Source: Escherichia coli (GTDB taxonomy: Bacteria > Pseudomonadota > Gammaproteobacteria > Enterobacterales > Enterobacteriaceae). From it: 64,000 nucleotides of DNA. The notes beneath the pieces are model-generated. The model searched no databases, had not been told where the DNA came from, and saw only the letters and a program-made list of their open reading frames with translations. Of the stretch, positions 37,889 through 43,313 are shown one piece after another. Both the position numbers and the translations under genes were made by a program. Positions within the stretch are counted from its first letter, which is position 1. Each line of letters opens with the position of its first letter. The stretch is taken from the NCBI RefSeq assembly GCF_003334335.1, contig NZ_QOWQ01000005.1, one strand, 5' to 3'.

Positions 37889-38007
37889 TTCCTGCCACGT
37901 AAGCCCCTCATCGGGCACTAAAACAGCAATACAAAAATATAACCCTCTGTAAATTACAGGGCATGGTGAGCGGCTTCGCTATGCCCAAAATCTGGAGAAA
38001 GCTCGCT

Positions 38008-39300
38008 ATGGATATTCCCGTTAATGCAGCAAAGCCGGGGCGTCGGCGTTATCTGACGCTGGTGATGATCTTTATTACGGTAGTCATTTGTTATGTCGAC
38101 CGCGCCAACCTGGCCGTGGCTTCCGCCCATATTCAGGAAGAGTTCGGCATTACCAAAGCGGAAATGGGCTATGTATTTTCGGCCTTCGCCTGGCTTTATA
38201 CGCTATGTCAGATCCCCGGCGGTTGGTTTTTAGATCGCGTAGGTTCTCGCGTGACTTATTTTATTGCGATATTTGGCTGGTCAGTGGCGACTTTATTCCA
38301 GGGCTTTGCCACGGGCTTAATGTCATTAATTGGTCTGCGCGCGATAACCGGTATTTTCGAAGCGCCTGCTTTCCCGACCAATAACCGGATGGTGACCAGC
38401 TGGTTCCCGGAACATGAACGCGCTTCTGCCGTTGGTTTTTATACGTCTGGTCAGTTTGTCGGTCTGGCGTTTCTGACGCCGCTGCTGATCTGGATTCAGG
38501 AGATGTTGAGCTGGCACTGGGTGTTCATTGTCACTGGTGGTATCGGCATTATCTGGTCGCTGATTTGGTTTAAGGTTTATCAGCCGCCGCGCCTGACCAA
38601 AGGTATCAGCAAAGCTGAACTGGATTACATTCGTGATGGCGGCGGTCTGGTGGATGGTGATGCGCCGGTGAAGAAAGAGGCGCGTCAGCCGTTAACAGCC
38701 AAAGACTGGAAACTGGTGTTCCATCGTAAACTGATCGGCGTTTATCTTGGGCAATTTGCGGTGGCTTCTACACTGTGGTTTTTCTTAACCTGGTTCCCGA
38801 ACTATTTAACCCAGGAAAAAGGAATCACGGCGCTGAAAGCAGGCTTTATGACCACGGTGCCATTCCTCGCGGCGTTTGTCGGCGTCCTGCTCTCTGGCTG
38901 GGTAGCGGATCTGCTGGTACGTAAGGGCTTTTCACTGGGCTTTGCGCGTAAAACGCCGATTATCTGCGGCTTGCTGATCTCCACCTGCATTATGGGCGCT
39001 AACTACACTAACGATCCGATGATGATTATGTGCCTGATGGCGCTGGCATTCTTCGGTAACGGTTTTGCTTCGATTACCTGGTCGCTGGTTTCTTCTCTGG
39101 CACCGATGCGCCTGATTGGTTTAACCGGCGGCGTGTTTAACTTCGCCGGTGGTCTGGGCGGCATCACCGTTCCGCTGGTGGTGGGGTACCTGGCGCAGGG
39201 TTACGGTTTCGCACCTGCACTGGTTTATATCTCCGCCGTCGCGTTGATTGGCGCGCTCTCTTATATCCTGCTGGTGGGCGATGTGAAGCGCGTTGGCTAA
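38008..39300 (+). CDS. dgoT: D-galactonate:H+ symporter DgoT (MFS, 430 aa)
   Basis: Trimmed to [22 protein letters not shown]…; 12-TM MFS. Confidence 0.9.
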
Positions 39301-40361
39301 TCCTTCAACTGTGGAATATGTGCCACACCACTGCGCATAATCCACTTTCTTAAAGCCGGTGCGGTCAGGCATCGGCTTTTTACTATCTTGCCGAAGAGTT
39401 TTAAACGCAGTTTGCGGGTGGCGCGCCAGTAAGCGGTATTGAGCTTCTCTGGCTGCTTCAGTAACACCGAACGCAGAATGTCTGTGCTATCCAGCGCATA
39501 GCTAATCCCCTCCAGCGAGCTGGCGCTGATAAATCCCGCCGCTTCACCAATCAGAAAGGCGTTGTCCTTACCGCAGACAAAATCCTGCCAGCGCGAGGGA
39601 AACAGCACCGTGCATTTTTCGCTTTTCACCGTCTTACCAAACTGGAACTGAAAGGCGCTCATTTTCTCTTTCAGCGTCGTGAAACGCGTCTGACCGTCTT
39701 TCATTGGATAGGCACCGCCAAAGATAAAATAACCGTCTTTGCTGATACTCCATGAATAACAGTTAGTTATCGAATTATCAAAGATGCAGGAGTAGAACGG
39801 CACCGGATGTTTCTCCGCGAACCACTGCTGGATAGCGACATATTTACGGATTTGATGATCCGGGTAGAGATGTCGCCGCACCATCGAGTTTGCGCCATCG
39901 GCACCGACCAGATAGCGGGCGGTAATATGTTGCTCCCAGCCGTCTGCACGAAAAATGACATGCCATTTATCATCCTCACGCCAGATTTTTCGGCACAGGC
40001 TGTCGTGATAAACCTCAACGCTGGCGGGGATCAGCGATTTCATCCACAAGTCGAAAGCATGGCGATTAATATTGATATAGCTTCGCTGGTAGTTACGCGT
40101 GAGCGATGCGGCGACGTCGACGGTTTTGACGCTGAAAATCTGCGGATTAGCGATCACATCGACAGGAAGCGTCAGCCCATCGCGAATAAAAGATCGCTGC
40201 GCGTCCGGTGCCAGCAGACCGCCGCAGGGTTTGCTGAAACCTTCAGTACCACACTGGTGCTTTTTATCCAGCGCGATCACCTGCATTTTGCCTGCTAACT
40301 TTCGTGCCAACGCCGATCCTGCCGGGCCGAGGCCAATAATCGCCACGTCGAAATGTTCCAT
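39297..40361 (-). CDS. cbrA: FAD-dependent oxidoreductase CbrA (YidS), geranylgeranyl-reductase-like (354 aa)
   Basis: Trimmed to [22 protein letters not shown]… (GxGxxG dinucleotide-binding motif). Confidence 0.85.
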
Positions 40362-40425
40362 CTTTTCACTCACATTCATCACGATGGCAAAAGACTATTG
40401 TCTGAAAGTGAAGTCCTTGTGAAGT

Positions 40426-41676
40426 ATGATGGCGGGACCCGTTTTGTATCAGGACCGCGCCATGAAACAGATAACCTTTGCTCCCCGTAATCACCTGCTC
40501 ACCAATACCAATACCTGGACGCCCGACAGCCAGTGGCTGGTATTTGACGTGCGTCCTTCTGGCGCGTCGTTTACCGGCGAGACCATTGAGCGTGTGAATA
40601 TCCATACCGGCGAGGTCGAGGTTATCTATCGCGCGTCACAGGGCGCACACGTCGGCGTGGTGACCGTTCATCCGAAGTCAGAGAAATATGTTTTCATCCA
40701 CGGCCCGGAAAATCCTGATGAAACATGGCATTACGACTTCCATCATCGGCGCGGAGTGATTGTTGAAGGCGGCAAGATGAGTAACCTTGATGCGATGGAT
40801 ATTACCGCGCCGTATACGCCAGGAGTGCTGCGCGGCGGCAGCCATGTGCATGTCTTTAGCCCGAACGGTGAAAGGGTGAGCTTTACCTATAACGACCATG
40901 TAATGCATGAACTCGATCCGGCGCTGGATTTGCGAAACGTCGGTGTTGCTGCGCCGTTTGGCCCGGTCAACGTACAAAAGCAGCATCCGCGTGAATACAG
41001 CGGTAGCCACTGGTGCGTGCTGGTGAGCAAAACCACGCCCACGCCACAGCCTGGCAGTGATGAAATCAATCGTGCTTATGAAGAAGGATGGGTAGGAAAT
41101 CACGCGCTGGCATTTATTGGCGACACACTTTCGCCAAAGGGCGAGAAAGTGCCGGAGCTGTTTATCGTTGAGTTACCGCAAGATGAAGCTGGCTGGAAAG
41201 CGGCAGGTGATGCGCCGTTAAGCGGAACGGAAACAACCCTGCCCGCGCCACCGCGTGGCGTCGTGCAGCGACGTTTAACCTTTACCCACCATCGGGCTTA
41301 TCCGGGGTTAGTCAACGTCCCGCGCCACTGGGTGCGCTGTAATCCGCAGGGTACACAAATCGCGTTTTTAATGCGAGATGATAACGGCATTGTGCAACTG
41401 TGGCTTATCTCGCCACAGGGCGGCGAGCCGCGCCAGTTAACCCATAACAAAACGGATATTCAGTCTGCATTTAACTGGCATCCGTCAGGAGAATGGTTGG
41501 GCTTTGTGCTGGATAATCGAATTGCTTGTGCCCATGCGCAAAGCGGCGAGGTTGAGTATTTAACCGAACACCACGCCAATTCACCTTCTGCGGACGCCGT
41601 GGTCTTCTCGCCGGATGGTCAGTGGCTGGCGTGGATGGAAGGCGGCCAGCTGTGGATCACCGAAACTGATCGCTAA
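40426..41676 (+). CDS. yidR: YidR, uncharacterised beta-propeller-like protein (about 415 aa; start uncertain between ATG 40426 and 40429)
   Basis: Long soluble ORF with repeated WxxDG/SPDGxW-like segments (…VFSPDGQWLAWMEGGQLWITETDR). Confidence 0.8.
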   Translation: MMAGPVLYQDRAMKQITFAPRNHLLTNTNTWTPDSQWLVFDVRPSGASFTGETIERVNIHTGEVEVIYRASQGAHVGVVTVHPKSEKYVFIHGPENPDETWHYDFHHRRGVIVEGGKMSNLDAMDITAPYTPGVLRGGSHVHVFSPNGERVSFTYNDHVMHELDPALDLRNVGVAAPFGPVNVQKQHPREYSGSHWCVLVSKTTPTPQPGSDEINRAYEEGWVGNHALAFIGDTLSPKGEKVPELFIVELPQDEAGWKAAGDAPLSGTETTLPAPPRGVVQRRLTFTHHRAYPGLVNVPRHWVRCNPQGTQIAFLMRDDNGIVQLWLISPQGGEPRQLTHNKTDIQSAFNWHPSGEWLGFVLDNRIACAHAQSGEVEYLTEHHANSPSADAVVFSPDGQWLAWMEGGQLWITETDR

Positions 41677-41677
41677 A

Positions 41678-42010
41678 TCAGTTATCAGGCATTCTGGCCG
41701 GTGGAATAACCGCATTGGTGGCTTGCGCGTTGGCTTCGCTTTTTTCAACGCGCGAGCGCACCGAGCTGTCTTTGCGGAACACATCCCACGGCAGTAAAAG
41801 CGTGTCCATCACAGCGGTAAACGGCATATCGAGAATCGCCAGCGACTTAGTGCCCCAGTTGGTTTCATCGTCGCCAATCATGGTTGCGCTGGCGCGGGTG
41901 CCGGGATACGTTCCTTCTTTCCCTCCGGTATGGGACATCACGCTGGAGCATCCTCCGAGTAATGTCATTCCGCTGCATATCATGAACGCTAACAACACAT
42001 TTCTTATCAT
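41678..42010 (-). CDS. yidQ: Putative lipoprotein YidQ (DUF1375, 110 aa)
   Basis: Trimmed to MIRNVLLAFMICSGMTLLGGCSS… (lipobox LLGGC). Confidence 0.8.
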   Translation of the reverse strand: MIRNVLLAFMICSGMTLLGGCSSVMSHTGGKEGTYPGTRASATMIGDDETNWGTKSLAILDMPFTAVMDTLLLPWDVFRKDSSVRSRVEKSEANAQATNAVIPPARMPDN

Positions 42011-42184
42011 AATAAATTCATCTGTTGATCGTGGGTGTTGGCCTGATGAGTTATAGCGATCCCTTGCTGAAAATAACATCATCATTACGTCGCACTGTGG
42101 CGGCTATCGCACTTTAACGTTTCGTGCTGCCCCCTCAGTCTATGCAATAGACCATAAACTGCAAAAAAAAGTCCGCTGATAAGG

Positions 42185-42215
42185 CTTGAAAAGTTCATTT
42201 CCAGACCCATTTTTA
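42185..42215 (+). promoter_or_regulatory. Sigma-32 heat-shock promoter of ibpA
   Basis: -35 cttgaaa and -10 cccattttta with about 14-nt spacer, close to the sigma-32 consensus (CTTGAAA / CCCCATNTA). Confidence 0.8.
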
Positions 42216-42315
42216 CATCGTAGCCGATGAGGACGCGCCTGATGGGTGTTCTGGCTACCTGACCTGTCCATTGTGGAAGGTCTTACATTCTCGCTGATTT
42301 CAGGAGCTATTGATT

Positions 42316-42729
42316 ATGCGTAACTTTGATTTATCCCCGCTTTACCGTTCTGCTATTGGATTTGACCGTTTGTTTAACCACTTAGAAAACAACCAGAGCC
42401 AGAGTAATGGCGGCTACCCTCCGTATAACGTTGAACTGGTAGACGAAAACCATTACCGCATTGCTATCGCTGTGGCTGGTTTTGCTGAGAGCGAACTGGA
42501 AATTACCGCCCAGGATAATCTGCTGGTGGTGAAAGGTGCTCACGCCGACGAACAAAAAGAGCGCACCTATCTGTACCAGGGCATCGCTGAACGCAACTTT
42601 GAACGCAAATTCCAGTTAGCTGAGAACATTCATGTTCGTGGTGCTAACCTGGTAAATGGTTTGCTGTATATCGATCTCGAACGCGTGATTCCGGAAGCGA
42701 AAAAACCGCGCCGTATCGAAATCAACTAA
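42316..42729 (+). CDS. ibpA: Small heat-shock protein IbpA (alpha-crystallin family, 137 aa)
   Basis: Trimmed to [20 protein letters not shown]…; alpha-crystallin domain. Confidence 0.95.
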
Positions 42730-42840: not shown

Positions 42841-43269
42841 ATGCGTAACTTCGATTTATCCCCACTGATGCGTCAATGGATCGGTTTTGACAAACTGGCC
42901 AACGCACTGCAAAACGCCGGTGAAAGCCAGAGCTTCCCGCCGTACAACATTGAGAAAAGCGACGATAACCACTACCGCATTACCCTTGCGCTGGCAGGTT
43001 TCCGTCAGGAAGATTTAGAGATTCAACTGGAAGGTACGCGCCTGAGCGTAAAAGGCACGCCGGAGCAGCCAAAAGAAGAGAAAAAATGGCTGCATCAAGG
43101 GCTTATGAATCAGCCATTTAGCCTGAGCTTTACGCTGGCTGAAAATATGGAAGTCTCTGGCGCAACCTTCGTAAACGGTTTACTGCATATTGATTTAATT
43201 CGTAATGAGCCTGAACCCATCGCAGCGCAGCGTATCGCTATCAGCGAACGTCCCGCGTTAAATAGCTAA
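42841..43269 (+). CDS. ibpB: Small heat-shock protein IbpB (142 aa)
   Basis: Trimmed to [24 protein letters not shown]…; paralogue of ibpA immediately downstream. Confidence 0.95.
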
Positions 43270-43284
43270 CTAGCTATTCTCTTT

Positions 43285-43313
43285 GCCCCGCCATTCTGGT
43301 GGGGCTTTTTTTG
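43285..43313 (+). terminator. Rho-independent terminator after ibpB
   Basis: gccccgccattctggtggggc stem followed by T8. Confidence 0.8.

Follow-up and report, generated by a model that had tools for sequence, protein, structure and literature searches.

Three adjacent genes, cbrA, yidR and yidQ, occupy positions 39297-42010 of a 64,000-nucleotide stretch of Escherichia coli DNA (contig NZ_QOWQ01000005.1 of RefSeq assembly GCF_003334335.1), and they raise the question of whether a flavin-dependent reductase, a beta-propeller-like protein and a lipoprotein that are encoded side by side also belong together. The stretch at its full length is referred to here as the window. An initial annotation, made from the sequence alone, had presented the three genes as a single item. 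We favor, at a probability of roughly 85%, an explanation in which the interval holds three separate, catalogued genes that encode the CreBC-controlled CbrA, the propeller protein YidR and the lipoprotein YidQ.

The three genes are already catalogued members of the E. coli core genome. Positions 39000-42400 of the window are 100% identical to E. coli K-12 MG1655, and at least 80% of that region is carried by 5415 of 5426 complete E. coli genomes. In RefSeq, cbrA lies on the minus strand at 39297-40361 and encodes a 354-amino acid, flavin adenine dinucleotide (FAD)-dependent reductase of the geranylgeranyl-reductase superfamily under the name 'colicin M resistance lipid reductase CbrA'. The plus-strand gene yidR (40462-41676) encodes a 404-amino acid member of the DUF3748 family, predicted to be a cytoplasmic, seven-bladed beta-propeller of the PD40 type, and yidQ (41678-42010, minus strand) encodes a 110-amino acid lipoprotein of the YceK/YidQ family (DUF1375). 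The interval originally claimed is exact, since its ends are the cbrA stop and the yidQ start, and all three genes were confirmed. Judging from their scores against NF008519, NF008628 and DUF3748, the three open reading frames (ORFs) are genuine genes rather than chance ORFs. The length of roughly 415 amino acids first given for YidR corresponds to an older, longer call: the longest yidR ORF, from 40426, encodes 416 amino acids, and older annotations list 415. The supported length is 404 amino acids with a start at 40462, because YidR homologues all open with MKQ(I/V)TF and a 51-nt spacer between dgoT and yidR in other genera (see below) excludes the extension. The 36-nt extension region (40426-40461) is without counterpart in genera that have dgoT or yidA upstream of yidR, and the ATG of the longer ORF sits within a promoter-like -10 box. 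There is little new in the interval, where everything is already annotated, and the result is a correct reading of three K-12 genes.

In the window, the trio is flanked upstream by the dgoRKADT operon (plus strand) and downstream by ibpA-ibpB-yidE. Gene order was compared using a scan of one genome per GTDB species, in which 264 genomes contained a close YidR relative. The best 80 loci were taken (YidR identity 73-97%; Enterobacteriaceae except for a few doubtfully labelled records) and MG1655 was added, for a total of 81. A convergent yidQ is next to yidR in all 81 loci, ibpA and ibpB follow yidQ in 80, and yidE is present in 72. Upstream neighbors were counted in the 78 loci whose sequence extended far enough 5' of yidR: immediately before yidR comes a co-directional dgoT in 34, a divergent cbrA in 22, a yidA-type sugar phosphatase in nine and various other genes in the remainder. 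The layout with cbrA next to yidR occurs in Escherichia, Citrobacter, Pseudocitrobacter and a few others. Overall, cbrA falls within the fetched flank in 28 of the 81 loci, a cbrA-like gene (69-73% identity) lies beyond the dgo operon in six, and cbrA is absent within 10 kb of yidR in Klebsiella, most Enterobacter, Raoultella and Kluyvera. The yidR of Proteus mirabilis (56% identity) is located between gmk-spoT-trmH and glyQS with no cbrA, yidQ or dgo gene nearby, and the non-enterobacterial homologues (36-46% identity), which came from metagenomes and a planctomycete-type genome, have none of these genes, nor any ibp gene, close by. Matches that suggested a plasmid-borne YidR proved to be mislabelled chromosomes.

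Neighborhood co-occurrence, a test that the initial annotation had itself named as able to refute it, argues against treating the three genes as one item, as had initially been done, given that cbrA adjoins yidR in 22 of 78 loci and the three were not found together in the contexts examined outside the family. The trio is not a conserved unit, and its members are neighbors by history, not by shared function. The adjacency of yidR and yidQ is family-level synteny, and plain synteny at that, because ibpAB adjoin equally strictly, while cbrA is a mobile neighbor. It appears that cbrA was inserted between dgoT and yidR in the Escherichia/Citrobacter lineage.

The first of the three products had been described as a FAD enzyme of the geranylgeranyl-reductase type, a description that its sequence bears out. 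CbrA matches TIGR02032 (GG-red-SF) over residues 11-301 with an E-value of 6.6e-33 and BchP-ChlP with an E-value of 6.2e-21, and its N-terminus matches the Pfam families DAO, FAD_binding_3 and Pyr_redox_2. Regular-expression searches of the translation located the dinucleotide-binding motif GxGxxG as GLGPAG at residues 10-15 (codons 40317-40334, minus strand). The translation also contains K43-P-C45-G-G47 and L-I-G-E-A-A-G-F, and a YxWxFP motif is partly kept as Y-S-W-S-I-S. A (K/R)PCGG near the flavin and an LxGDAAGF-type motif are what we take to be the geranylgeranyl-reductase motif definitions derived from archaeal structures. The TIGR02032 score of 114.7 bits is below the curated cut-off of 158.8 bits, and the score against the NCBIfam equivalog NF008519 is 686 bits (cut-off 303); on these scores, CbrA is homologous to the TIGR02032 superfamily but belongs to an outlying subfamily with its own equivalog. 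A sequence search of the PDB with CbrA found no close solved structure and one weak match (E-value 3.7e-5). A 2021 review also describes CbrA as resembling geranylgeranyl reductases (PMC8469651). In its passage on the enzyme, which reports Barreteau et al. 2020, CbrA is stated to saturate the alpha-isoprene unit of undecaprenyl phosphate (C55-P) and of lipids I and II, and CbrA-overproducing cells are stated to resist colicin M as the saturated C55-P, lipid I and lipid II are not hydrolysed (PMC8469651). That passage makes the statement that none of the three proteins has a well-defined substrate obsolete as regards CbrA, with C55-P and lipids I and II as the substrates named.

Control of cbrA by CreBC would be exerted within the 100 bp that separate cbrA from yidR. 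An exact cre tag, TTCACAAGGACTTCAC, occurs there at 40408-40423 on the minus strand, 46-61 nt 5' of the cbrA ATG, and matches the CreB-binding consensus TTCACnnnnnnTTCAC, which was reportedly defined by Avison et al. in 2001. The window contains two exact cre tags, compared with 0.14 expected; the second (12280-12295, minus strand) lies 48-63 nt 5' of the cbrB-cbrC pair (11129-12232, minus strand). All three 'CreB-regulated' cbr genes are thus found within this window, approximately 28 kb apart and with tags at a like distance. The existence of the cre tag has been mentioned previously (PMC3962086). CreBC is known to control cbrA positively, and cbrA rises by 4.3 log2 units within 30 min of exposure to colicin M (PMC3599342). 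We propose that CreBC would activate cbrA through this tag. A consensus scan found a sigma-70-like promoter candidate for cbrA, TTCACA-18-AATAGT (40394-40423, minus strand), which has 9/12 matches, a score that is not significant alone; its -35 hexamer lies within the cre tag. The same kind of scan found a candidate that may serve yidR, CTGAAA-17-TATGAT (40402-40430, plus strand), and its sequence is conserved 5' of yidR in Escherichia, Citrobacter and Salmonella loci. At the other end of cbrA, its 3' end converges on that of dgoT (37963-39300, plus strand) with a 4-nt overlap (39297-39300), and the cbrA-dgoT pair is part of the E. coli convergent excludome (PMC12288877).

YidR matches the full model (1-123) of Pfam DUF3748 (PF12566) with an E-value of 8.6e-58. 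The matched part, 40648-40998 on the plus strand, corresponds to residues 63-179 of the 404-amino acid protein (75-191 in the 416-amino acid numbering). Relatives were sought among 1.84 billion cluster representatives of a 50%-identity library, giving 187 matches at E <= 1e-30, and an alignment of 51 DUF3748 members (33-82% identity) was used for conservation analysis and as AlphaFold2 input. Repeated SPDG-like segments had been noticed in YidR, and a regular expression recovered eight such turns of the form x-P-[DNKQS]-[GS] along the protein: TPDS20, HPKS70, SPNG133, SPKG224, NPQG294, SPQG317, HPSG340 and SPDG383. A propeller fold had likewise been suggested and was upheld by structure prediction. 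The AlphaFold2 model is all-beta with a mean predicted local distance difference test (pLDDT) of 97 and a predicted template modelling score (pTM) of 0.94, and seven-bladed propellers are its best matches. Its strand pattern and seven blade-defining turns suggest that YidR is a seven-bladed propeller closed by an N-terminal strand. In a Foldseek search of the PDB, TolB and DPP-IV propellers rank first by E-value, and 3c5m has, by a small margin, the top query-normalised template modelling (TM) score (0.57) among the 50 PDB chains listed. A PDB sequence search with YidR alone picked up short segments resembling PD40 as well as a de novo repeat protein, and a search with the YidR profile returned TolB/WD40 blades only (TolB E-value ~1e-11, residues ~310-420). 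Every AFDB50 match of YidR is a DUF3748 protein that has yet to be characterised; the matches come from Enterobacterales, Planctomycetota, Bacteroidota, Armatimonadota and green algae, and DUF3748 entries in that database are variously mislabelled 'TolB' or 'ATP/GTP-binding protein'.

Conservation among the 51 sequences is concentrated in a few polar residues: R96 and Y143 are invariant (100%), followed by D145 and R158 (98%), H128 and R271 (96%), H130 (94%) and E232 (90%). H128-V-H130 (40843-40851, plus strand) is part of the family motif LRGG-S-H-V-H-x-F-S-P-x-G and lies on the inner strand of blade 3, where it is a candidate metal or active site. This His/Arg/Tyr/Asp-rich set may make up a site at the propeller center that depends on a metal and serves catalysis or ligand binding. 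Enterobacterial YidR proteins, including those of E. coli and Klebsiella, have no signal-peptide-like N-terminus; such an N-terminus is present in ~20 of the 51 alignment members, the more distant ones, for which ~40% was obtained when lipoboxes were counted together with signal peptides. DUF3748 is worth attention mainly for its chemistry, which is the remaining point of value in a family that is widespread (the 187 representatives) and has a confident fold and enzyme-like invariant residues.

Distant homologues are varied in context. DUF3748 propellers are fused to sulfatase, GH31 glycosidase, BNR_2 sialidase-like and multihaem cytochrome domains and to type IX secretion tails. DUF3748 was also seen together with a HIT zinc finger; among green algae, Bathycoccus has a homologue of this HIT type, and those of Micromonas bear a DPP-IV-like label. 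Across six distant-homologue neighborhoods and 16 fusion proteins, sulfatases and glycosidases recur with no consistent operon. An assignment of YidR function from these contexts and fusions was considered and rejected as too weak.

YidQ was identified as a DUF1375 lipoprotein convergent on yidR, in agreement with the original call. It scores 211 bits against NF008628 (cut-off 91), matches the YceK model NF007555 more weakly, and matches Pfam DUF1375 with an E-value of 1.5e-8. A lipobox, L18-G-G-C21, followed by Ser at +2, was found with the pattern [LVI][ASTVI][GAS]C on the translation (codons 41948-41959, minus strand), and by the +2 sorting rule YidQ is probably in the outer membrane. A PDB sequence search with YidQ gave nothing meaningful. 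YidQ has been detected in vesicles of a tolA mutant (PMC7973035), and RamA/SoxS binding has been mapped in the ibpA(hslT)-yidQ intergenic region of Salmonella (PMC10268841). The stop codons of yidR and yidQ are 1 nt apart in the window (41674-41680), and the stop-to-stop gap is between -4 and +2 nt in 78 of 81 loci. With a gap of 1 nt, neither gene has room for a terminator outside the coding sequence of the other, and as yidQ is transcribed towards yidR, the 3' ends of the two mRNAs necessarily overlap. In E. coli, yidQ-yidR is among the recorded convergent excludons (PMC12288877).

In most other Enterobacteriaceae, yidR directly follows dgoT, the galactonate transporter gene, and has the same orientation. 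The dgoT-yidR spacer measures 50-55 nt in 32 of the 34 loci with that arrangement, mostly exactly 51 nt and in at least 10 genera, and 97 and 174 nt in two species. It contains a hairpin, TACCCTGATGCG-N7-CGCATCAGGGTA, of 11-13 bp that ends 5-7 nt before the yidR ATG and whose 3' arm holds the sole Shine-Dalgarno-like AGGG of yidR. Of the 80 fetched loci, 45 have an equivalent immediately 5' of yidR, including a copy in Klebsiella spallanzanii (L030:9964-9996) with a folding energy of -24.3 kcal/mol (z = -5.9). In the alignment of the 45 loci, 91% of cells are paired, compared with 27-45% in slid controls, and the covariation score exceeds that of all 500 shuffles. Compensatory double changes are seen at two pairs (UA to AU, GC or GU; GC to CG or AU), and G-U pairs occur on the sense strand. 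The Klebsiella-type hairpin matched no Rfam family, and the idea that it is a repetitive extragenic palindrome (REP)-like repeat was rejected at the scale of the 1.4 Mb of loci, in which there is one copy per locus. Because the hairpin is kept where yidA replaces dgoT upstream, it belongs with the yidR 5' end, and it might act as an attenuator between the cistrons, stabilise an mRNA 3' end or gate translation. In E. coli, only hairpin fragments remain, at ~40420-40461, and where the 5' arm would be there are the cbrA promoter and cre tag. A structure sequestering the Shine-Dalgarno sequence 5' of yidR in E. coli was tried and discarded, its fold being no better than shuffled sequence (z -0.27).

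Published data link YidR to the same pathway. The metabolome of a yidR deletion is most similar to that of a dgoT deletion; dgoT, dgoD, dgoR and dgoK are within the ten genes best correlated with yidR over 907 arrays; and a yidR mutant grows poorly specifically on gluconate and galacturonate (PMC5293155). No convincing intrinsic terminator was found between dgoT and yidR in the window, and galactonate-induced read-through from dgoT, antisense to cbrA, is a plausible explanation for the correlated expression of yidR and the dgo genes. Such read-through, passing through cbrA into yidR, may also oppose cbrA expression. On account of dgoT adjacency together with the published expression and growth data, a sugar-acid role is the most likely one for YidR, and we tentatively propose, at somewhat less than even odds, that it works in the cytoplasm, probably with the help of a metal, as an enzyme or binding protein that handles a sugar-acid derivative connected with the dgo pathway. 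The dgo link narrows the YidR substrates worth considering.

Several points weigh against this reading of the locus. The dgoT-yidR adjacency is confined to one bacterial family, so that conserved synteny alone could explain it, and the contexts of distant homologues are inconsistent. The growth defect was measured in a Keio-type yidR deletion, which might also have affected the 3' end of yidQ, where the two genes overlap, or the promoter region shared with cbrA. No DUF3748 protein has a reported biochemical activity, and the literature searched names the family only in a vaccine study. The sigma-E-regulon label given to yidQ and yidR (PMC2685091) would be more in keeping with a role in the envelope than with one in metabolism. 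Finally, the direction of the rearrangement, with cbrA inserted here and not lost elsewhere, is suggested by parsimony only.

A bolder version of the sugar-acid proposal, which we consider unlikely when all of its steps are taken together, is that YidR is the unrecognised last gene product of the enterobacterial D-galactonate (dgo) operon. YidR would then be a metal-dependent propeller enzyme acting on, for example, a lactone, an unsaturated uronate or a 2-keto-3-deoxy acid. By burying the Shine-Dalgarno sequence, the hairpin would gate yidR translation in most genera. Insertion of the CreBC-controlled cbrA in Escherichia/Citrobacter would have destroyed the hairpin and left yidR with a promoter of its own, and dgoT read-through antisense to cbrA would keep yidR tracking the dgo genes.

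It is also conceivable, but quite improbable, that YidR is a divergent oligogalacturonate/uronate lyase of the PL22 type, i.e. a Mn2+-dependent beta-eliminase cleaving acidic oligosaccharides, whether saturated or unsaturated, in the cytoplasm. The lead held by 3c5m in query-normalised TM-score among the 50 listed chains (0.57) points in this direction, as do the poor growth of the yidR mutant on galacturonate and the distant homologues that carry, or lie beside, sulfatases, GH31, fucosidase and BNR_2 sialidase-like domains, although sulfatases are common in planctomycete-type genomes anyway. YidR also resembles PL22 in having an H-x-H on an inner strand before an S/T-P-x-G turn (S/T-P-D/N-G in these proteins), SHVHVFSPNG in YidR and THPHPSFTPDD in the PL22 lyase YeOGL. 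The Mn2+ ligands of YeOGL are reportedly Q350, H353, H355 and H287, with H242/R217 as catalytic residues, an assignment ascribed to Abbott et al. in 2010. The H-x-H is however in blade 3 of YidR and in the last blade of PL22, and it differs in register, lying one residue nearer the turn, so that equivalence is unproven; the PL22 motifs DARMW, THEFW, SHLM and QxxHxH are all lacking in YidR. The PDB sequences 3PE7 (YeOGL) and 3C5M (VPA0088) were aligned and compared with the YidR family profile using hhalign. Membership was rejected on the outcome, a probability of 18.8% over 92 columns in which generic PD40 blades were out of register, and a Pfam scan of YidR found no PL22 family (PF14583). E. 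coli, moreover, uses monomeric galacturonate, for which a lyase is not needed. What likeness there is would be one of fold: membership in PL22 is unsupported, and a functional analogy, with a metal site at the propeller center, is possible.

A role for all three genes in one envelope-stress module, with reductase, propeller and lipoprotein acting on the same envelope process, is very improbable. CbrA does act on an envelope precursor, cbrA and yidR have the 100-bp divergent control region with its cre tag in common, and yidQ adjoins yidR in every one of the 81 loci, the 1-nt junction hardly varying. The envelope-stress link raised earlier has a precedent in one paper, where yidQ and yidR are counted as sigma-E-regulon genes co-induced 3 h into restriction-modification-mediated cell death and yidQ overexpression lowers viability (PMC2685091). 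The main text of Rhodius et al. 2006 names neither yidQ nor yidR. Regions upstream of yidR, yidQ and cbrA were scanned for sigma-E promoters (GGAACTT-N16-TCNAA), and the scan remained at background level, with weak matches 5' of yidQ (GGACTTT-16-TCTAT; background rate 0.6 per kb) and none 5' of yidR. The gene order described above also argues for separate genes, since cbrA is the immediate neighbor in 22 of 78 loci, is found beyond the dgo operon in six and, in many genera, does not occur within 10 kb, the genes do not co-occur outside the family, and ibpA/ibpB are as strictly conserved beside yidQ (80 of 81) as yidR is. YidR lacks a signal peptide and would therefore have no direct contact with an exported lipoprotein, and convergent, overlapping transcripts predict mutual interference rather than co-expression.

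The proposal from the Klebsiella vaccine literature that YidR is a surface-associated, ATP/GTP-binding 'hyperadherence' factor is scarcely credible: some database entries do carry the name 'Putative ATP/GTP-binding protein', but YidR has no signal-peptide-like N-terminus in E. coli or Klebsiella, the modelled all-beta fold is not that of a P-loop NTPase, the adherence role is given in the vaccine paper by citation and without direct experiment there, and genome-announcement papers group yidQ, yidP and yidR alike under the 'hyperadherence' label. The PROSITE P-loop pattern [AG]x4GK[ST] is absent from E. coli YidR, which reads GASFTGET; among the enterobacterial sequences it is matched, as GASFTGKT, in Salmonella-type YidR only (P0004, P0087, P0096 and P0119), by chance and in a beta-propeller strand region. 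The 'ATP/GTP-binding protein' label probably derives from this chance match. This matters because YidR is in development as a Klebsiella/Enterobacteriaceae vaccine antigen on the basis of an assumed surface, ATP/GTP-binding adherence role that sequence and model do not support.

An Rfam scan found no family inside the cbrA-yidR-yidQ interval. Just past yidQ, in the ibpA 5' untranslated region, it found the known and annotated ROSE_2 RNA thermometer (42250-42322, plus strand; 100.4 bits, E-value 1.4e-22). Immediately after ibpB, at 43241-43313, there are weak, sub-threshold matches to unrelated small RNA families on both strands, which most likely reflect the ibpB terminator hairpin.

Among known systems, YidR may be compared with the TolB/PD40 (WD40-like) propellers, a group to which the propeller domains of S9 peptidases and DPP-IV also belong. 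PD40-type repeats are matched in sequence by the C-terminal blades of YidR, and this TolB-like character explains why DUF3748 proteins are so often named 'Translocation protein TolB' automatically. TolB itself, in contrast, is periplasmic and six-bladed with an additional domain at its N-terminus, and YidR lacks a signal peptide and is predicted to be seven-bladed. Identity with TolB (TIGR02800) was rejected at 17 bits against a cut-off of 343 and for lack of a signal peptide. S9 peptidases and DPP-IV differ in that they have a peptidase domain, which YidR is without. YidQ is a founding member of the YceK/YidQ family (DUF1375). CbrA is E. coli b3690 itself (100% identity), the protein studied by Helbig et al. 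2012 and Barreteau et al. 2020. It has GxGxxG, KPCGG and L-x-G-[DE]-A-A-G-F in common with the geranylgeranyl reductases, i.e. the archaeal digeranylgeranylglycerophospholipid reductases and the ChlP/BchP of plants and cyanobacteria, and differs from them in its chemistry: geranylgeranyl reductases reduce all double bonds of a C20 chain, whereas CbrA reduces the alpha unit only of a C55 polyprenyl phosphate.

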